43,235 bases of DNA from Patescibacteria group bacterium (GTDB lineage: Bacteria > Patescibacteriota > Minisyncoccia > UBA6257 > 02-FULL-45-10c), in contig JAGWKK010000002.1 in NCBI GenBank assembly GCA_028865335.1, positions 1-43,235 on the forward strand. The letters are read 5' to 3'. A model generated the notes under the pieces. It was not told where the DNA came from, ran no database searches, and saw only the letters and a list, made by a program, of their open reading frames with translations. A program made the position numbers and the translations under genes. Numbering within the stretch: the first letter of the stretch is position 1; each line of letters opens with the position of its first letter. Positions 1 through 39,546 of the stretch are shown here, piece after piece.

Positions 1-238
1 TCACAACGAGCTTTCTTTACCGTGGGGTCTGGTAGGGCGTTTCGTTTCCATTTCGGGTTCCTCGAGGGTCCGATCCGGCCGCAACGCTCCCCGCCAGGTT
101 ACTGTTTTGCGGGAAGCGAGATATGCGAAGGATCGGATCATCCCGCACATGTCTCGCCCCCGCAAATGATTTATTAACGAACTATAACAATATAGCATAG
201 TCGGCCCGATAAGTCAATACCCGGCCGATGCCCGAGGA

Positions 239-3310: not shown

Positions 3311-4033
3311 ATGGCCACCGAAGAATTCCCGATGCGGATCAACAAATATCTCGCCTCTCAGAAGATCGCCAGCCGGCGCGGCGTTGACGACCTCATCCGC
3401 CAGAAGCTGGTGCGTATCAACGGACGCATCGCGATGCTGGGCGCGCAGGTCAATGAGGGCGACAAAGTGACCGTCGGCAAAGTCGTTCAGGAGCAGATCC
3501 AGAAGCACCGGACCTATCTCGCGTACAACAAGCCGCGCGGCGTCGTGTCGCATACTCCCGAAGAGGGACAGCAGCAGATCACCGATGTCGTCAATGTCGG
3601 TTTCCCGGTTTTTCCGATCGGGCGGCTGGACCGCGCGTCCCGCGGACTCATCATCCTGACCAACGACGGGCGGATCACCGGCAGATTGCTGGATCCGCAG
3701 TATGAACACGAAAAGGAATATGCGGTGACGGTTGACCGTCCGCTGGAGAAGCATTTTCTGCGCCATCTTGCCGCGGGCATGAAGATCGAAAGCGAAAAAA
3801 CCCGGCCGGCGGAAGTGAAGCAGACGGGGGAGAATCGCTTCACGATCATACTCAGCGAAGGCAAGCGGCATCAGATCCGCCGCATGTGCGCGGCATTCGG
3901 CTATCGGGTGACCGATCTCCGCCGCACCCGCATCATGAACATCAAACTGGGCGCGCTTGCCGAAGGAACCTGGCGGAAGATAGAAGGGGATGAATTGAAG
4001 ACGTTTTTGACCGCGCTTGGTTTTGAAGAATAG
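3311..4033 (+). CDS. pseudouridine synthase, RsuA/RluF family, with S4 domain
   Basis: MRINKYLA S4-type N-terminus and catalytic GRLDRASRGLIILTNDG. Start is ATG 3311 or 3332; the listed 3236 start is rejected. Confidence 0.9.
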   Translation: MATEEFPMRINKYLASQKIASRRGVDDLIRQKLVRINGRIAMLGAQVNEGDKVTVGKVVQEQIQKHRTYLAYNKPRGVVSHTPEEGQQQITDVVNVGFPVFPIGRLDRASRGLIILTNDGRITGRLLDPQYEHEKEYAVTVDRPLEKHFLRHLAAGMKIESEKTRPAEVKQTGENRFTIILSEGKRHQIRRMCAAFGYRVTDLRRTRIMNIKLGALAEGTWRKIEGDELKTFLTALGFEE

Positions 4034-4324: not shown

Positions 4325-5092
4325 ATGCTGACCATCTCCCTGCAACCCGAATATCTTTTCACGCTTTTCGGCCTGCCGATCACCAATACGTTCTTTACCG
4401 CGCTCGTGGTTGACCTGGTGCTCATCATTCCGGCGGCGGTGGGATATCTGCTGCGCCGCGACAATCTTTTCGCGAAGACGTTCCGGGTCTTCATCTATGA
4501 ACTGCTGCGCCTGGTTGACGAAGTGACCGGCGACCGCAGGCTGAGCCGGATGATCTTTCCGCTGATCGCGACCTTCTTCCTTTTCATCGTCACCTCCAAT
4601 CTTCTGGAAATCATCCCGGGCTTCCTCGGGTCGTTCTTCGTGGTCGTCGGCGGCAAGCAGGTCGCGCTGCTCCGTTCACCGAACAGCGATTTAACGACCA
4701 CGCTCGCATTGGCTATACTGTCAGTAGGGAGTACGCAGCTCTTTTCGCTGAGGATGCTGGGCATCGGAGGCTACGTTTCCCGTTTCATCAATCTTTCCAG
4801 CCTGCCGGGTTTCATCATGGGATTTTTTGAGGGGATATCGGAATTGATCAAGCTCTTCTCATTCTCGTTCAGGCTGTTCGGCAACATATTTGCCGGCGAG
4901 GTGCTTCTGCTGATCGTCGGGTTTCTCGTTCCGTATATCATACCGATGCCGTTCATGATCCTGGAAATATTCGTCGGCATCGTGCAGGCGTTCATCTTCA
5001 CCATTCTTTCATTGACATTCATCAAAGCGGGTACGCTGCGAATGGAAGCCGTCGGCAGCGCCCATCCAATTAATTCAAACGTATCATTATGA
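4325..5092 (+). CDS. atpB: F0 ATP synthase subunit a
   Basis: Conserved FSFRLFGNIFAGE arginine motif; multi-TM; operon context. Confidence 0.9.
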   Translation: MLTISLQPEYLFTLFGLPITNTFFTALVVDLVLIIPAAVGYLLRRDNLFAKTFRVFIYELLRLVDEVTGDRRLSRMIFPLIATFFLFIVTSNLLEIIPGFLGSFFVVVGGKQVALLRSPNSDLTTTLALAILSVGSTQLFSLRMLGIGGYVSRFINLSSLPGFIMGFFEGISELIKLFSFSFRLFGNIFAGEVLLLIVGFLVPYIIPMPFMILEIFVGIVQAFIFTILSLTFIKAGTLRMEAVGSAHPINSNVSL

Positions 5093-14689: not shown

Positions 14690-14880
14690 CACTTCTCGAC
14701 GGGGCGCAAGAATCAAGGCCCGCTCGCTGACTACCTGCAGGCACAGGCTCACTCGAACCGCGTCTGGGCACCCCTGCCTGCCGGCAGGCAGGTTCGGTTT
14801 CCCATCCCTTCCTGATGCGCCTGTCCCGCCAAAGCTTCAGCGGCGGAGGAGGGTGCTGCTGGTTCGAATCCCTTAGTCAC
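14690..14880. other. GC-rich structured non-coding segment with tRNA T-arm-like fragment
   Basis: Perfect 20-nt palindrome CCTGCCTGCCGGCAGGCAGG, hairpin CCCGCC-AAAGCTTCAGC-GGCGG, and GCTGGTTCGAATCC at 14858-14871 without a pairing T-stem. Confidence 0.3.
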
Positions 14881-14910
14881 AATATTTAAAAATTATATGT
14901 ATCGTAATTG

Positions 14911-14981
14911 TTCCGAGACAGGGATTCGAACCCCAATTTTCGCTTCCAGAGAGCGACGTCCTACCATTAGACGATCTCGGA
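14911..14981 (-). tRNA. tRNA-Gln (anticodon CUG)
   Basis: Hand-folded cloverleaf: acceptor TCCGAGA/TCTCGGA (U1-A72), U8, A14, GG in the D-loop, anticodon stem TCGCT/AGCGA, loop CUCUGGA, T-arm TGGGG-TTCGAAT-CCCTG. Confidence 0.9.
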
Positions 14982-15227
14982 ATATATCGTACCCAGCTTT
15001 CGCTTCAAAACCTTCTTTCCTTTGGCGCTTTTGTAGAACCTCTCCATCTCAAAAGCTTTATATAGATTCTCATACCCCTCCGAATAAATCAACGCTAAAG
15101 GTCGGCGACTTTTCGTAGATCGGACATAGCCATTATTATGATATTCCAATCGATCCTTAAGAGAAGCCGTGCATCCTATATATAGCTTCTTATCTTTCAA
15201 GCTTTTGAGAACGTACAGATACTGCAT
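14967..15227 (-). CDS. GIY-YIG nuclease superfamily protein (86 aa, UPF0213/YhbQ-like)
   Basis: YLYVLKS...KLYIGCT...RLEYHNNG...RRPL.LIY.E...E motif series. The last 5 codons and the TAA stop overlap tRNA-Gln nt 1-15. Confidence 0.85.
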   Translation of the reverse strand: MQYLYVLKSLKDKKLYIGCTASLKDRLEYHNNGYVRSTKSRRPLALIYSEGYENLYKAFEMERFYKSAKGKKVLKRKLGTIYSEIV

Positions 15228-15250
15228 GGTGATAGCTTGCTATCATTGCC

Positions 15251-15308
15251 GAGCGACGTCCTACCATTAGCCTCGCCCATAGGCTACGGCCGAGGGACGA
15301 TCTCGGAA
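15251..15308 (-). pseudogene. orphaned 5' half of tRNA-Gln (nt 1-32) interrupted by a 26-nt hairpin
   Basis: 15251-15270 and 15297-15308 are identical to 14951-14970 and 14971-14982; 15271-15296 is an inserted hairpin; identity stops in the anticodon loop. Confidence 0.7.
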
Positions 15309-15431
15309 TATCAAAAGACTACCTTGTATAGTGTACGTCACCTGCTGATAAAATTCAACGGCATGTGTACAACTCAATGATGGAATATGCTATGCTTATT
15401 CTTGTATCACAATTAACAACTATTTTCACAT

Positions 15432-18393: not shown

Positions 18394-19653
18394 ATGGATA
18401 TGCTGCAGCACTTCAGGGAGAAATACGGACATCGCATTCCATTGTATACGGCGGTTTTTATCGTGGCCGCTGCGGCGGGCATCGCGCTGTTCTACGGAGG
18501 ATATGAACTGGGCATCCGCCATCCGAAGGTGGTGACGCTGGACAATGTGACGAACACTGATGCCAAATCGGATATCACCGCGAATTTCGGCACGTTTTGG
18601 GAAGCCTGGGATGTCATGAAGAACGAATACCTGAAAGGAGCCGACCTGACGAATCAGAAGATGGTGTACGGCGCGATCACGGGCCTGGTCAATTCCGCCG
18701 GCGATCCGCACACGATATTCCTGCCTCCGCCTGATTCGGTGAAATTCCAGCAGGATGTATCCGGCAATTTCGGCGGCATCGGCGCGGAGATCGGCATCAA
18801 GAACAGCCAGCTTGTCATCATCGCTCCACTCAAGAACAATCCGGCCGAGCAGGCGGGTCTGAAAGCGGGGGATGCGATCGTCGCGATCGACGGTAAATCG
18901 ACCGACGGCATCGATGTGAACAGTGCGGTGGAGAAGATCCGCGGCGAAATCGGCACCACGGTGACGCTGACCATTTTCCGCGACGGCTGGGATCATACCA
19001 AGGACTTCAAACTGGTCCGCGCGAATATCCAGGTTCCGACGCTGGATACCGAAATGCTTCATATCAACGGCAAGACCATCGCGCACATCTCGCTGTACGC
19101 CTTCAACGAGAATGCTCCGCTCGGTTTCTATCAGGCTGCGCTGACGGCGCTCTTCAACAAGTCCGACGGCATCATCCTGGATCTTCGCGATAATCCGGGC
19201 GGCTATCTGGAGGTGGCGACCAATCTCGCCGGCTGGTTCGTGAACAAAGGAGCGGTCGTCGTCAAAGAACGTTATCGCACCGGTAACGAAGACACCTTCT
19301 ACGCGAACGGCAACGAAGCGCTGAAAGATGTGCCGATGGTGATCCTGGTGAATAAAGGTTCCGCATCCGCCTCTGAAATTCTCGCCGGCGCCCTCCGCGC
19401 GATCCGCGGCGTGAAACTGGTGGGTACGAACACGTATGGAAAGGGGACGGTGCAGGAACTCCGCACACTCAGTGACAACTCGCAGATCAAATTGACGATC
19501 GCCAACTGGGTATTGCCGGACGACACCATCATCAGCGAAGACGGCCTTGCGCCGGATGTGGAAGCGGACCTGTCCGATGCCGACATCGCAAATCACAACG
19601 ACAGCCAACTGAAAGCTGCTGAGGATACGCTGCTTAAGGAACTCGGCAAATAG
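18394..19653 (+). CDS. S41 carboxy-terminal processing protease with PDZ domain
   Basis: PDZ GLKAGDAIVAIDG; catalytic region NKGSASASEILAGAL. Confidence 0.9.
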   Translation: MDMLQHFREKYGHRIPLYTAVFIVAAAAGIALFYGGYELGIRHPKVVTLDNVTNTDAKSDITANFGTFWEAWDVMKNEYLKGADLTNQKMVYGAITGLVNSAGDPHTIFLPPPDSVKFQQDVSGNFGGIGAEIGIKNSQLVIIAPLKNNPAEQAGLKAGDAIVAIDGKSTDGIDVNSAVEKIRGEIGTTVTLTIFRDGWDHTKDFKLVRANIQVPTLDTEMLHINGKTIAHISLYAFNENAPLGFYQAALTALFNKSDGIILDLRDNPGGYLEVATNLAGWFVNKGAVVVKERYRTGNEDTFYANGNEALKDVPMVILVNKGSASASEILAGALRAIRGVKLVGTNTYGKGTVQELRTLSDNSQIKLTIANWVLPDDTIISEDGLAPDVEADLSDADIANHNDSQLKAAEDTLLKELGK

Positions 19654-19691: not shown

Positions 19692-19820
19692 AAAAAAAGC
19701 CCCCGACCGAAGTCGGGGGGTACGAGAGCGGTCCTCCCACAGTACGAATACGAACAGCCGCAGGAGGCACACATGACCCCGAAGGGTCACCCCGGTTGCT
19801 TAAGCCGAGTAATTGTACGT
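19692..19820 (-). ncRNA. candidate small structured RNA (about 130 nt), promoter-to-terminator unit
   Basis: TTGACA (19855-19850), 17-nt spacer, TAGTAT (19832-19827). UUCG-capped hairpin GUGACCC/GGGUCAU. Terminator CCCCCGAC-UUCG-GUCGGGGG plus U-run. Shares a 41-nt module with 23214-23254. Confidence 0.5.
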
Positions 19821-19861
19821 GGTTTAATACTACCTCAATTCAAATAATTTGTCAATACCCT

Positions 19862-19887
19862 AAAAAACATCCCGCAAATGCGGGATG
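19862..19887 (-). terminator. rpmA terminator (bidirectional hairpin)
   Basis: CATCCCGC-AAAT-GCGGGATG flanked by A- and T-runs. Confidence 0.7.
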
Positions 19888-19892
19888 TTTTT

Positions 19893-20165
19893 TTAGAGAA
19901 CGCTGACGACGGTTATCTTTCTTCGTGATCCGTCGAAACGGGTCTTCTTGGAAGTGGTGAATTTCACTTTACCGTTCTTCATCGCGTAGATCGTGTCGTC
20001 GGCTCCCTGTTTGACGTTGGTGCCGAGCGAATACTTGCTGCCGCGCTGGCGGATGAGGATCTGTCCTGCCATCGCCATTTCGCCGTCCGCTTTCTTTACG
20101 CCGAGCCGTTTTGATTCTGATTCTCTATTATTATGGGCTGCGCCCACCGATTTAGTATGTGCCAT
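19893..20165 (-). CDS. rpmA: 50S ribosomal protein L27
   Basis: MAHTKSVGAAHNNRESESKRLGVK... canonical L27 N-terminus. Confidence 0.95.
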   Translation of the reverse strand: MAHTKSVGAAHNNRESESKRLGVKKADGEMAMAGQILIRQRGSKYSLGTNVKQGADDTIYAMKNGKVKFTTSKKTRFDGSRRKITVVSVL

Positions 20166-20319
20166 AATTTCCCGAGAGCGAAGCGATTGGCTGAAATTAT
20201 GAGCATCCCGCCGTAGCTTTAGCGGAGGCGGACGCCATTCATTTGCTTATCGCAGCACCCTCAATTAATTTACCTAATCTATAGTATACCATACTGACGG
20301 ATAATGCAAGAGGCGTGGG

Positions 20320-20386
20320 GTGGTCGAAGGTACAAAGTACAAAGTCAAAAGTCATAAAACTAAAAATCATAAAGTTGAATAAAAAA
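20320..20386. repeat. phased heptamer stutter tract
   Basis: ggtcgaa|ggtacaa|agtacaa|agtcaaa|agtcata|aaactaa|aaatcat|aaagttg. Confidence 0.55.
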
Positions 20387-20416
20387 TCCCCCGACCGAAG
20401 TCGGGGGGGGTGATGT

Positions 20417-21054: not shown

Positions 21055-21194
21055 ATTAGAAATTAGAAATTAGGAATTAAAACTCATGACGCATGACTCA
21101 TGACGCATGACTCGTGACTCTTGATTCATGACACTTGCCACCTGACACCTGAAACATGAAACCTTATGGACCTTATGGACCTTTGACTTTACAG
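21055..21194. repeat. 20 consecutive in-phase degenerate heptamers; left inverted arm
   Basis: attagaa|attagaa|attagga|attaaaa|ctcatga|cgcatga|ctcatga|cgcatga|ctcgtga|...|cacctga|cacctga|aacatga|... The reverse complement matches 26727-26830. Confidence 0.8.
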
Positions 21195-22492: not shown

Positions 22493-22966
22493 ATGAAGAA
22501 GATCGCACTCGGCGTGCTCGTACTCGGCCTTGCGGGATGCATGGCGGACGTCCGTCAGGACGCGCATACCTACATCCTCAAGGAAGTTCCGGTGGTGATG
22601 ACCGGCGCGATGGACGGAAATTCATCGGCCTCGGGAAATCAGCTTGGACCGACTGTCGAGATGGCTCTGCTGGACCAAAGCCGGCCCGGGACGAAGCAGC
22701 TGACCGATCCGGAGGAGGACGTCTCGCTGCTCGCCTGCGCTTCGACGGTGCGCATCGAGATCGACCCCGCGCTCAGCGAATGGTTCAGCAACTACCAGTA
22801 TTCCGAACTGTTCAGTGCCGAGCGGGTGACGACCGACGCCACCTGGCCCCGCCGCTATTTCGCATCGGGAGCCGTGGTCATCAAAGTGGATGACACTCCC
22901 CGTAAACGCGAGATCGAGGATGCGCTCCGCATTCTGCGCAACCACTCGTGTCCCGGAAAGAACTGA
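22493..22966 (+). CDS. lipoprotein (157 aa)
   Basis: Signal peptide with lipobox LGLAGC; TTGACG-17-TAGGGT promoter upstream. Confidence 0.75.
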   Translation: MKKIALGVLVLGLAGCMADVRQDAHTYILKEVPVVMTGAMDGNSSASGNQLGPTVEMALLDQSRPGTKQLTDPEEDVSLLACASTVRIEIDPALSEWFSNYQYSELFSAERVTTDATWPRRYFASGAVVIKVDDTPRKREIEDALRILRNHSCPGKN

Positions 22967-22988
22967 GCTGCAGCAATGCAGCTTTTTT
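22966..22988 (+). terminator. intrinsic terminator
   Basis: AGCTGCA-GCAA-TGCAGCT then TTTTTT. Confidence 0.7.
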
Positions 22989-23061
22989 ATTTGGCTCAAC
23001 CACTGCGCCCGTATTTTATAGGTATTGACAAATAAGCACTCGATATGCTAGATTATATTTA

Positions 23062-23324
23062 ATCCACAGGCGCAGTAGTCCTTCTCGCAACGGTCTCGAG
23101 GCCGTTGGACCCCGAGAAGAGCGCGCTCGTAATACGTGGAGCGAACGGATCCCGTGGGTCCGTGGCCCTGCGACCATGCTCTAGCGGAGGGTCTCTGCTA
23201 AAGCTAAGGACAAAGGGCTCCTTTTACTCGGCTTAGGCAACCGGGTCGACTCTTCGGAGTCGTGATCGGCTTTGGAACTCAATCCTCAGCTGTCAGCGCC
23301 TTCCCCCAAAGCTTCGGCTGCGGG
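23062..23324 (+). ncRNA. candidate structured RNA (about 260 nt), or a terminator-containing leader of the protease gene
   Basis: GGTATTGACAAAT promoter (TTGACA 23025-23030, TAGATT 23049-23054). Nested helices CTTCTCG/CGAGAAG around CAACGG/CCGTTG. UUCG hairpin CGACTC/GAGTCG. Terminator 23293-23324. No ORF. Confidence 0.5.
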
Positions 23325-23411
23325 GGATTTTTTTATATCAGTTTTAGCTCTGGATTTCTCTCAATAAATACCGTACAGTGAAAATATCCTTGAAAATCCG
23401 AAAGAGGACGA

Positions 23412-24011
23412 ATGCACGTAATCGTCGTCGTTGGGAAACCGAGTAACGAAGATTCACGCAAGGATCGGTTTGAAATCGCTGCGACCAATACGATCCTTAA
23501 CCTCCGTATAGATTTCGATATGGCTCGGAAAGACGATCTTTCTTACGTCTGGGGACCTGCTTCGCGGGTACAGAAGCGCCTTGAAGCTATCTTCCTGGAG
23601 AAGCGCGACGAAGACATCTGCCTTTTCTATTTCGGCCATGGGGCTGAGTACGGATGGGCGATGCTAGGCGATCGACGCCCCGGCTCCGTCCTCGCGTACG
23701 AAGACCTCCGGCTGACGCTTGCGCAGCATTCCGGAAATCTTCTCTTTATCAACGCTCCGTGCTACGCCGGCGCCGCATCCGATGCGCTGGAGGGACATGG
23801 CGGAGCGCATTGTCTGATCGCTCTGGTCCCTCGCGATAAATGCGGCTATCCCGAAAACTTCATCCATTCCATATTCGGATCTTGGCGCGCTCGCCGCTTT
23901 TTCAATCCGCGAGATCCCTGTTTTGGGAATGTAGAAGACAATGCCCCTGTCGTCGAAGGCGATATCGAGTTGCAGCAGCTGATGTTCCCGAAAAAGGAGG
24001 CATTCGTATGA
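23412..24011 (+). CDS. minimal clan-CD (caspase/legumain-like) cysteine protease fold, paralog 1 (199 aa)
   Basis: ICLFYFGHGAEYG (His76) and LLFINAPCYAGA (Cys117) with 41-residue spacing, as in the clan-CD His-Cys dyad. Confidence 0.65.
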   Translation: MHVIVVVGKPSNEDSRKDRFEIAATNTILNLRIDFDMARKDDLSYVWGPASRVQKRLEAIFLEKRDEDICLFYFGHGAEYGWAMLGDRRPGSVLAYEDLRLTLAQHSGNLLFINAPCYAGAASDALEGHGGAHCLIALVPRDKCGYPENFIHSIFGSWRARRFFNPRDPCFGNVEDNAPVVEGDIELQQLMFPKKEAFV

Positions 24012-24232
24012 ACCGGAAAGAGCGCAAGAGCTACGTCGAGCTGACGCGATACCTGATTCTCATTGCTGCGACGGTCGCGTTCGCCGTAGCGACTTATCCG
24101 CTGCTCTATTATTCCGGTGCGCTGAAATTGATGAATGACATTTCAGTGGCGTTGACGATTTCGCTGCGCAACCTGATTGAACACCAGAATCCTACGATCA
24201 CCGTCCCGTATCCGAAGCAGCCGCGCCGGTAG
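24008..24232 (+). CDS. small membrane protein (74 aa), translationally coupled to the protease
   Basis: ATGA start/stop overlap with the upstream CDS; one clear TM (YLILIAATVAFAVATYPLLYY) and a second amphipathic segment. Confidence 0.55.
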   Translation: MNRKERKSYVELTRYLILIAATVAFAVATYPLLYYSGALKLMNDISVALTISLRNLIEHQNPTITVPYPKQPRR

Positions 24233-24242
24233 AGTATCATCC

Positions 24243-24305
24243 CCCCGCCATTCCAGGTGGCGGGGACCCGCCCTCGCACCTTTGATAAGGTAGTGAGGGT
24301 TTTTT
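24243..24305 (+). terminator. tandem hairpins / terminator
   Basis: CCCCGCCA-TTCCAGG-TGGCGGGG, then CCCTCGC...GTGAGGG followed by TTTTT. Confidence 0.6.
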
Positions 24306-24335
24306 AATTTCCCCGCCACTGGTACAATAAGAGAC

Positions 24336-25385
24336 ATGGACCTGACCACGATCGCCATTTTCATACTGATCCTTATCGGCTTCGCCGTACTGTACGCCGC
24401 GATCAAGAATCAACCGCAGCCGGAGACAAAAAAAGATGAACAGTCGCTTCTGATGCTCCAACAACAGCTGCAGGATCTGCGCCGTACCTTGGATACGCAG
24501 CTCGGCGCCTCCACGCGCTCCATGCAGTCGCAGTTCAGCGAGAGCGCGAAAATCATCCGCGATGTCACCGAACGCCTCACGAAACTGGATGAGACCAACC
24601 GCCAGGTGGTCAGCTTCGCCGACCAGCTTCAGAATCTGCAGGACATCCTGAAGAATCCGAAACAGCGCGGCATCCTCGGCGAATATTATCTGGAGGAGAT
24701 CCTGAAGAACGTCCTGCCGCCGGGCCGCTATCAGATGCAATATCCGTTCAAGAACGGCGACATCGTAGATGCGGTCATTTTCGTGCAGGACAAAGTGATT
24801 CCGATCGATTCCAAGTTCAGCCTGGAAAATTACAACCGCCTTCTGGAAGCGCACGAAGAATCCGAACAGGCCGATCTGGAAAAAGCATTCAAGCAGGATC
24901 TCAAAAACCGCATCGATGAGACGGCGAAATATGTGAAGCCGGAAGAGGGGACGATGGACTTCGCGTTCATGTTCATCCCGGCGGAAGCGATTTACTACGA
25001 TCTGCTCGTCAACAAGATTGGCGCGGCGAAAACGAACACGCGCGACCTGATCCAGTACGCATTCAAGGACAAACATGTCATCATTGTTTCGCCGACGTCG
25101 TTCCTGGCGTATCTGCAGACCGTTCTCCAGGGATTGAAGGCGTTGCAGATTGAAGAATCCGCAAAGGAGATCCGTAAGCGGGTGGAGATGCTCGGCAAAC
25201 ACCTCGGCAGTTACGAGGATTACATGAAAAAGCTCGGCACCCACCTCGGCACTTCCATCAATATGTACAACAGCGCCTATAAGGAGCTCGGGAAGATCGA
25301 CAAGGACGTTCTGAAGATCACCGACTCGGCCATCGGCATCGAACCGGAATTGCTGGAACGACCTGAACTGACGGAAGTGGAATAG
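24336..25385 (+). CDS. rmuC: DNA recombination protein RmuC
   Basis: N-terminal TM, long coiled coil, and a RmuC C-terminal nuclease-like core (GILGEYYLEEIL..., FMFIPAEAIYYDLL). Confidence 0.88.
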   Translation: MDLTTIAIFILILIGFAVLYAAIKNQPQPETKKDEQSLLMLQQQLQDLRRTLDTQLGASTRSMQSQFSESAKIIRDVTERLTKLDETNRQVVSFADQLQNLQDILKNPKQRGILGEYYLEEILKNVLPPGRYQMQYPFKNGDIVDAVIFVQDKVIPIDSKFSLENYNRLLEAHEESEQADLEKAFKQDLKNRIDETAKYVKPEEGTMDFAFMFIPAEAIYYDLLVNKIGAAKTNTRDLIQYAFKDKHVIIVSPTSFLAYLQTVLQGLKALQIEESAKEIRKRVEMLGKHLGSYEDYMKKLGTHLGTSINMYNSAYKELGKIDKDVLKITDSAIGIEPELLERPELTEVE

Positions 25386-27973: not shown

Positions 27974-28753
27974 ATGAAAGCGATCCTGCTGCTATACGAC
28001 GAGGCCGAATCCCGCATCGCCGTTGAGGCAGTGCGCGGACAGAAGGAAAAGCAGAAAGTCGATTACCGATGCACCTGCGTCCGCAATGCCACGCTGGAAA
28101 AAGCGCGGCGGTTGCTTCGCTACCTCCGTGTGCCGTGTCGGATGAAACCGGACGAGACCGCCATTCTGACCTCCACGCATTTCGTCGCGGGCTCGGACAT
28201 CCAGCGGGCGATTCACGACGCGATCAGGCGTTTCGCCGATGACGACATTCTTCTGTTCTACTCAGGCCACGGCGGAGAACAAAGTTGGGATCTGGGTGAA
28301 CGGATGAACACTCGGAAATTCGTGCTCTTCAAGGAGCTCGCAGGCATGATCGCGATGAGTGCCCGGAAGCATGTCGGAATCATCGCCGATTGCTGTCACA
28401 CACTTGCCCTTGACCGCTATCTTGCCGATCTGAGAAAACTGGACGGCCGGTATCTCCTGATCGGATCAAGCCAGGCGGATCGTGTCGGCAGCGAGAACGT
28501 CTCCCTGGCCCATCCGATATGCGACGCGTGGGAGTTCCGGCAGATGGCGGATATCCGCGTCGGGAAGATCGAGAAACTCCAACACGGAACCGTCATGGAC
28601 ATTCCGTTCAATGCTCCGTACATATCCGGCGGAAATCCCGACTGCAAATGCGGAGAGGAGATCGTCGGCGGACTGACGTATCTTCCGTATGAACGCCCTC
28701 CGCTCCGCCGCGGAAGCAACCTCGATCATCTGTTCTTTCCTCCCGAGCCCTAA
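27974..28753 (+). CDS. minimal clan-CD (caspase/legumain-like) cysteine protease fold, paralog 2 (259 aa)
   Basis: ILLFYSGHGGEQ (His99) and VGIIADCCHT (Cys140/141) with the same spacing as paralog 1; shared C-terminal L..L(M/F)FP motif. Confidence 0.65.
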   Translation: MKAILLLYDEAESRIAVEAVRGQKEKQKVDYRCTCVRNATLEKARRLLRYLRVPCRMKPDETAILTSTHFVAGSDIQRAIHDAIRRFADDDILLFYSGHGGEQSWDLGERMNTRKFVLFKELAGMIAMSARKHVGIIADCCHTLALDRYLADLRKLDGRYLLIGSSQADRVGSENVSLAHPICDAWEFRQMADIRVGKIEKLQHGTVMDIPFNAPYISGGNPDCKCGEEIVGGLTYLPYERPPLRRGSNLDHLFFPPEP

Positions 28754-39457: not shown

Positions 39458-39546
39458 GTAGGGGAGGATTCGAACCAGCCGCGAGTGAAACTTAAGTCTC
39501 TCCCCCTCCGCCTTCGCCTCGCCATAGCTCGGCTTCGGCGTGACGC
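39458..39546. other. tRNA-derived debris: T-arm-like fragment, 15-nt repeat of the tRNA-Ser 3' end, and a C/G hairpin
   Basis: GGATTCGAACCAGC at 39466-39479; TCTCTCCCCCTCCGC at 39497-39511 equals 39404-39418; hairpin CGCC-ATAGCTCGGCTTC-GGCG. Confidence 0.5.

Follow-up and report, generated by a model that had tools for sequence, protein, structure and literature searches.

Two predicted paralogous small non-coding RNA genes suggest a plausible new RNA family in an uncultured Patescibacteria lineage

Two loci in a 43-kb stretch of Patescibacteria DNA (the window) are best read as paralogous, independently transcribed genes for small non-coding RNAs, RNA1 on the forward strand and RNA2 on the reverse strand (Table 1), a reading to which we assign a probability of about 0.6. 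The predicted ~270-nt RNA1 and its sister plausibly represent a new small-RNA (sRNA) family in an uncultured Patescibacteria lineage, and the comparison of the two sequences makes this a reasonably well-supported candidate that is probably genuine. In silico, each RNA has its own promoter and terminator and is insulated from its neighbors, and neither carries a conserved protein-coding frame. Homologs of the CtpA protein place the window in Patescibacteria near Candidatus Harrisonbacteria; the best non-self CtpA matches are only 66–72% identical, and thus no close relative is present in the databases.

Table 1 Coordinates of RNA1, RNA2 and the associated features (window positions unless a relative is named).
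Feature	Position	Strand	Description
Upstream lipoprotein gene	22493-22966		signal peptide with LAGC lipobox
Intrinsic terminator of lipoprotein gene	22965-22990	+	8-bp stem at 22965-22984, then T-run; -12.1 kcal/mol
RNA1 promoter	23014-23054	+	shared upstream/-35 block TTTTATAGGTATTGACAAAT (repeat I3, 20 nt, 85% match to RNA2 promoter); TTGACA 23025-23030, 18-nt spacer, TG 23046-23047, -10 TAGATT 23049-23054
RNA1 predicted transcript	23061-23334	+	~270 nt; start placed 7 nt after -10, end in U7 run
RNA1 closing helix P1	23068-23073 / 23296-23301	+	AGGCGC / GCGCCU; minimum-energy folds
RNA1-specific 5′ extension	23074-23221	+	148 nt, four helices; absent from RNA2
Four helices of the extension	23081-23119, 23124-23143, 23145-23163, 23164-23219	+	
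Extension helix	23081-23087 / 23113-23119	+	CUUCUCG / CGAGAAG, enclosing CAACGGUC / GGCCGUUG; minimum-energy fold
Extension helix	23124-23128 / 23139-23143	+	CGCUC / GAGCG; minimum-energy fold
Extension helix	23145-23152 / 23156-23163	+	ACGGAUCC / GGGUCCGU; minimum-energy fold
Shared module in RNA1	23224-23264	+	hairpins A and B; repeat I1, 41 nt, 85%
RNA1 hairpin A	23226-23246	+	ACUCGG, loop CUUAGGCAA, CCGGGU
RNA1 hairpin B	23247-23262	+	CGACUC-UUCG-GAGUCG
RNA1 hairpin C	23263-23295	+	position and topology kept relative to RNA2, sequence not
RNA1 intrinsic terminator	23302-23334	+	interrupted CCCCC/GGGGG stem with UUCG loop (UCCCCC..AGC-UUCG-GCU..GGGGGA, 23302-23327), U7 23328-23334; -16.4 kcal/mol for 23293-23335 folded
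Conserved proximal control block of caspase-like operon	23350-23399	+	three-genome alignment; outside RNA1
RNA2 promoter	19827-19866	-	-35 block GGTATTGACAAAT; TTGACA 19855-19850, 17-nt spacer, -10 TAGTAT 19832-19827
RNA2 predicted transcript	19692-19820	-	~128 nt; ~3.3 kb from RNA1
RNA2 P1	19818-19815 / 19723-19720	-	GUAC / GUAC, 4 bp only
RNA2 hairpin A	19809-19791	-	loop CUUAAGCAA
RNA2 hairpin B	19790-19773	-	
RNA2 hairpin C	19772-19728	-	
RNA2 terminator	19719-19700, U7 to 19692	-	CCCCCGAC-UUCG-GUCGGGGG
Caspase-like/peptide/RmuC trio, window	23412-25385		
Trio in relative L138	13339-15258		
Trio in relative L145	5875-7823		

RNA1 lies in a 445-nt gap (22967–23411) between the lipoprotein gene and an ATG at 23412, which the original prediction described as free of credible open reading frames and as holding a near-consensus promoter, a set of nested helices and a hairpin-plus-U-run terminator. 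Each part of this description was borne out. The open reading frames of the gap are confined to one of 43 aa (TTG start), one of 39 aa (GTG start) and one of 53 aa that runs on the minus strand across the promoter. None has a counterpart in RNA2. In both RNAs the frames are short and start at codons other than ATG or lack a Shine-Dalgarno sequence, no conserved frame is found, and the frames that cross the shared module yield unrelated peptides in RNA1 and RNA2 on inspection. The promoter matches 10 of 12 consensus positions, on a consensus that assumes E. coli-like sigma-70 recognition in a host that is a CPR bacterium, and is among only five sites in the window that combine an exact TTGACA with a score of at least 10/12. 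The terminator of the lipoprotein gene would insulate RNA1 from transcription coming from upstream. Every helix that the original prediction named is present in the minimum-energy fold of RNA1, in which the 3′ strand of the closing helix P1 directly abuts the terminator. The 148-nt extension enclosed by P1 resembles nothing else in the window and nothing in the L138–L142 loci of relatives.

The original prediction had also noted that the 3′ module recurs in a second RNA at 19692–19820 but left its strand unstated; the recurrence holds, and the second RNA is encoded on the minus strand. RNA2 is flanked by ctpA (S41 protease, 18394–19653) and rpmA (L27, 20165–19893), two genes that converge; RNA2 has no gene downstream on its own strand and itself converges on ctpA. 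A perfect inverted repeat at 19862–19893 (repeat I4), with a loop too short for the terminator scan, is read as the bidirectional terminator of rpmA, which would insulate RNA2. The 13-nt −35 block is identical in the two RNAs, and the exact 20-mer ACTCGGCTTARGCAACCGGG occurs twice in the window where 0 occurrences are expected by chance. The 41-nt module is 85% identical, with six differing positions, and comprises hairpin A, whose stem CUCGG/CCGGG and 9-nt loop CUUARGCAA are conserved, and hairpin B, a 6–7-bp stem capped by a UUCG loop in both RNAs. The terminator ends are likewise common to the pair (repeat I2), whereas P1, hairpin C and the spacers of the two promoters are too different to align. 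Although P1 differs wholly in sequence, it occupies an equivalent position in each RNA, its 5′ strand near the 5′ end and upstream of hairpin A and its 3′ strand abutting the terminator. When 23074–23221 is removed in silico, RNA1 folds by itself into the topology predicted for RNA2 (P1, A, B, C and terminator), which argues that RNA1 is a four-way junction like that of RNA2, lengthened on its 5′ side by a 148-nt segment with four helices. The retention of the −35 block, the module and the terminator end in an otherwise diverged background points to an old duplication under selection rather than a recent copy, and on this comparison RNA1 and RNA2 are best regarded as paralogs.

The full RNA1 transcript, terminator and closing helix included, folds with z = −4.4; the RNA1 body alone (23061–23292) gives z = −2.2 (4/200 shuffles fold as well), and the reverse complement folds at least equally well (z = −3.4). 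The RNA2 body gives z = −1.1. The body folding energies are weakly or not significant and are not strand-specific, and constitute weak evidence. Since the energy signal is modest, the case that these RNAs are more than chance structures rests on the promoter and terminator that bracket each of them and on the comparison of the paralogs. Four of the six differences in the module fall in hairpin B as two compensatory exchanges (one C-G to U-A, the other U-A to C-G), such that two of its six pairs differ on both strands and every pair stays intact (n = 2 sequences). When six substitutions were placed at random in simulation, the probability of at least two compensatory pairs was 0.0014; the column shuffle of the covariation tool, which is without power at n = 2 sequences, returned 127/500. 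As a comparison of two sequences, this pattern indicates probable selection for pairing in hairpin B. P1 covaries completely between RNA1 and RNA2 (n = 2 sequences).

Neither RNA matched a known family, in agreement with the original prediction, which had found no likeness of RNA1 to RNase P, tmRNA, SRP, 6S, T-box or a familiar riboswitch core. At the gathering threshold, Rfam 15 returned only two tRNAs over the window. A permissive search of RNA1 (E ≤ 10) reached at best 15.2 bits against cut-offs of 45–50, RNA2 gave only sub-threshold, weak matches driven by its terminator, and no tmRNA was found by ARAGORN. Scans for exact patterns of the module, the first of which demanded the UUCG loop and was in hindsight overly strict, yielded nine matches in 185,579 species-representative genomes and six in JGI metagenomes, none with the module flanks; the two genome matches that were inspected both lie in coding DNA. 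All 120 matches listed for IMG/VR viral contigs proved on inspection to be chance 14-mers, and a BLAST search of RNA1 against phage genomes gave no match. A covariance model of the 46-nt module (R1), run over the window and ten loci from relatives, gave each of the two window copies 68 bits and no other site more than 14 bits. With blastn-short, RNA1, RNA2 and the RNA1 5′ domain found only terminator tails and the module in the window and the L138–L142 loci. A homolog search with the protein encoded at 23412 for closer relatives returned only itself, and nothing relevant was found in the literature on sRNAs or structured RNAs of CPR bacteria or Parcubacteria. As far as can be seen, the family would be specific to this lineage, with both of its members so far on one 43-kb contig. 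A CsrB/Rsm-type sponge was considered and rejected, with seven GGA motifs in RNA1 against ~4.5 expected and few ANGGA in loops. Complements of the hairpin-A loop, sought as targets across the 43 kb, number 14 against an expectation of 10.9, which is at chance level.

As far as the contigs of relatives extend, they keep the gene order fmt-def-x-LigT-CtpA, and ctpA is followed by rpmA in four of them (L011, L138, L143 and L145). The ctpA–rpmA spacer measures 32 nt in L011, 12 nt in L138 and 30 nt in L145; in L143 it measures 169 nt and is filled by a palindromic element unrelated to RNA2, and in the window it measures 239 nt and contains RNA2. Neither RNA1 nor RNA2 was found at the syntenic sites of relatives reached via CtpA homologs. 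The L143 element, which lies within 3511–3679, is ~115 nt long with terminal inverted repeats GTCATTCCGGGC...GCCGGGATGAC, and in this lineage the spacer seems prone to small insertions. In the window (20166–20290, minus strand), rpmA has its own promoter (TTGCAT-17-TATACT) and a ~120-nt 5′ UTR that holds a GC-rich hairpin, GCGUCCGCC...GGCGGGAUGC, with none in the region upstream of L138 rpmA. A likeness between 20211–20228 of this UTR hairpin and RNA1 23193–23209 (15/17 nt, repeat I5) was set aside as about chance level in 3.8 kb.

Other elements of the window are recorded here in their own right. Ahead of a tRNA-Gln gene (14910–14981, in the region 14910–15315 of the minus strand) stands an incomplete copy of the 5′ half of that gene (~15313–15255) with a ~25-nt insert, and an ORF of ~85 aa starting MQYLYVLKSLKDKKLYIGCT, GIY-YIG-like in appearance, lies between the two; the arrangement looks like a mobile GIY-YIG insertion by which part of the tRNA was duplicated. 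Exactly two copies of the motif GGATTCGAACCAGC are present in the window (14858–14871, minus strand, and 39466–39512, plus strand; 0 expected), each ~40–50 nt downstream of a tRNA gene. At 39480–39512 a copy of the tRNA 3′ end comes after the motif, and a relative (L010, ~4818–4975) has the motif in the same arrangement after a tRNA; a small element targeted to tRNAs, or the scar of an integration, may account for it. Tandem repeats at 21055–21183 (ACTCATG ×7, ATTAGAA ×3.6 and ACCTTATGG ×2.6) fill the divergent promoter region between a 190-aa gene (minus strand) and a 243-aa ORF (plus strand). At 60–221 (minus strand), a promoter-like TTGACT-17-TATATT with TG, whose −35 context GGTATTGACTTAT resembles that of the RNA promoters, precedes a long leader with a hairpin, UUGCGGGGGCGAG...CUCGCUUCCCGCAA, which lies ahead of an ATG at ~51; the RNA1/RNA2 module is absent there.

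The gene at 23412 encodes a 199-aa protein with an HG...C motif (FGHG, NAPCYAG). Its earlier designation as a protease is plausible from that motif only, with no sequence match in Pfam, NCBIfam, PHROG, PADLOC or PDB to back it. The gene is followed by one for a 75-aa transmembrane (TM) peptide (24005–24232) and by RmuC (24336–25385), and this trio of a caspase-like protein (~200 aa), a single-TM peptide of 58–75 aa and RmuC is kept in three Harrisonbacteria-like genomes: in L138 a caspase-like homolog of 214 aa (39% identity, E 1e-35) precedes a 58-aa peptide and RmuC, and in L145 the homolog has 211 aa (35% identity, E 3e-39). Among the neighboring hypothetical genes, PHROGs revealed no phage context, and the single PADLOC defense-library match was a weak one to caspase in the gene at 27974–28753, a second weak caspase-domain gene (PF00656, E 4.5e-4).

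The original prediction had offered two options, a free-standing RNA or a terminator-type cis-regulator of the genes downstream. As a cis-acting 5′ leader, a riboswitch or attenuator, RNA1 would use 23074–23221 as a sensor and P1 to control the terminator, with read-through into the caspase-like/peptide/RmuC operon. RNA1 does resemble terminating riboswitches and attenuators in being structured and on the same strand, in the short spacer of 77 nt from its U-run to the ATG, and in having the 3′ strand of its closing helix beside the terminator, a layout shared with many expression platforms of the OFF-switch type; the large structured domain is moreover found in RNA1 only, and no canonical −35/−10 pair was recognized between the terminator and the ATG. 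RNA2, however, has the same arrangement of P1 and terminator with no gene downstream, and RNA1, unlike riboswitches, is not tied to the orthologous operon: the upstream regions of the trio in L138 (131 nt) and L145 (~83 nt) contain no such RNA, the search with model R1 included. RNA1 further differs from riboswitches in its own consensus promoter, and no Rfam aptamer was matched even at E ≤ 10. By inspection there is no convincing antiterminator pairing, the alternative being a weak GGAGGG/CCUUCC without comparative support. The downstream gene also has a separate control block, CTGGxTTT ... GTAxA ... CCTTGAAAAT, which is common to the three genomes within ~60 nt before the ATG and which in the window lies between the RNA1 terminator and the ATG. 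In L145 this block is all that separates an upstream terminator from the ATG, and it should therefore hold the control signals of the operon itself. The earlier claim that the gene at 23412 has no promoter of its own is weakened to this extent, although the block shows no recognizable canonical −35/−10 pair. The operons of L138 and L145 that lack RNA1, the block beyond the terminator and the paralog without a downstream gene together favor a free-standing RNA gene over a cis-regulator of the caspase-like operon, and the promoter and terminator of RNA1 and the terminator upstream of it support the same option. We consider the cis-acting leader unlikely; partial read-through of the RNA1 terminator, or a contribution of its promoter to transcription of the downstream operon, is possible.

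The cassettes could instead have spread by mobility or recombination as small elements of promoter-out or MITE-like DNA, whose RNA would serve no purpose in itself and whose hairpins would belong to the DNA level or to terminators. Both copies occupy intergenic spots that are minimal in relatives, the same spacer in L143 carries a different palindromic insertion, the two copies are inverted relative to each other, each cassette is T-rich at both ends, and the RNA2 terminator hairpin (CCCCCGACTTCGGTCGGGGG plus T-run, 19693–19720) recurs at 27/28 nt after an unrelated 190-aa gene (20381–20408, repeat D1). Yet no terminal inverted repeats lie within the cassette and no clear target duplication is seen, the copies number only two, both diverged, in 43 kb, with none in ~90 kb of relatives' DNA, and the divergence of the interiors alongside functional blocks that are kept and changes that are compensatory argues for selection on RNA hairpins and not for recent transposition; we hold this account to be quite improbable. 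Still less credence is due to chance, that is, to a spacer with promoter-like and terminator-like strings that gives no RNA product of consequence. The weak z-scores of the bodies would agree with it, as would the promoter-like sites, which are not above expectation (3 in 6 kb, with 4.0 expected from shuffles), but the repeated 20-mer, the identical −35 block, the common architecture and the compensatory pairs make it very improbable. The idea that RNA1 is a highly diverged universal RNA (RNase P, 6S, SRP or tmRNA) missed by the Rfam models in CPR bacteria draws on its compatible size of ~270 nt, its strong promoter and the motif CGGCUUA of hairpin A, which resembles the 3′ strand of RNase P helix P4. 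The permissive search and ARAGORN speak against it, and inspection showed neither a P4 partner strand of the GGAAAGUCC type nor the long, centrally bubbled rod of 6S nor the domain-IV motif of SRP. CGGCUUA is also present in RNA2, and a 128-nt paralog with a shared motif does not fit a single-copy housekeeping RNA, nor does absence from the syntenic sites of relatives; we regard this proposal as barely tenable.

Under the preferred reading of two independent sRNA genes, each gene would be a compact cassette in which a strong sigma-70-type promoter with the common −35 block drives a folded body that ends in an intrinsic terminator. The common body would be a four-way junction formed by P1 abutting the terminator, hairpin A with its CUUARGCAA loop, the UUCG-capped hairpin B and the variable hairpin C, and the extra 148-nt, four-helix domain of RNA1 would be placed between P1 and hairpin A. 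Both RNAs would be transcribed in abundance as discrete species and would act in trans. The shared module, and chiefly the exposed hairpin-A loop, may provide the interaction surface for an RNA or protein partner, with hairpin B likely serving as a structural buttress and the RNA1-specific domain adding a function specific to that member. RNA1 would not primarily regulate the caspase-like operon, and some terminator read-through could add transcription there. The hairpin-A loops CUUAAG and CUUAGG are self- and cross-complementary when G-U pairs are allowed, and loop-loop pairing is a speculation that the sequences permit. A composite RNA1, in which a lineage-specific sRNA scaffold of P1 and hairpins A, B and C acquired the 148-nt, four-helix domain as a sensor or catalytic domain and so became a new riboswitch-like or ribozyme-like RNA responsive to a ligand or protein in a CPR bacterium of reduced genome, with paralogs that possibly pair through their loops, seems to us a decidedly long shot.

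RNA2 may in addition act in cis as an antisense RNA to the ctpA 3′ UTR. It lies between the ctpA stop and the inverted repeat at 19862–19893, the only U-tract terminator able to serve ctpA; with no other on the plus strand in between, the whole length of RNA2 would be complementary to the ctpA 3′ UTR. In being transcribed towards ctpA, RNA2, but not RNA1, resembles the cis-antisense RNAs found at convergent gene ends. Unlike in those, the overlap with ctpA is one that we infer, and RNA1 has no antisense partner, so that antisense action cannot be the function of the whole family.

The nearest analogs in kind are pairs of paralogous bacterial sRNAs that have promoters and scaffolds in common, such as GlmY/GlmZ, OmrA/OmrB and 6S-1/6S-2. 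Like these, RNA1 and RNA2 are two unlinked or loosely linked, ORF-less promoter-to-terminator units that share promoter elements and a structured module while the remainder has diverged. Unlike these, they show no sequence or model similarity to any such pair, RNA1 carries a 148-nt extra domain, and the host belongs to Patescibacteria, in which we know of no characterized sRNA system.

Patescibacteria of the CPR have tiny genomes and few classical regulators; to our knowledge almost nothing is known of their regulatory or structural RNAs, and we know of no genetic tools for them. The practical value of the pair is limited, with the family confined so far to a single contig and the host genetically intractable. 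For the biology of the group, RNA1 and RNA2 would be among the few concrete sRNA candidates in CPR bacteria, and they would show that such genes can arise as lineage-specific cassettes in otherwise minimal intergenic spacers.
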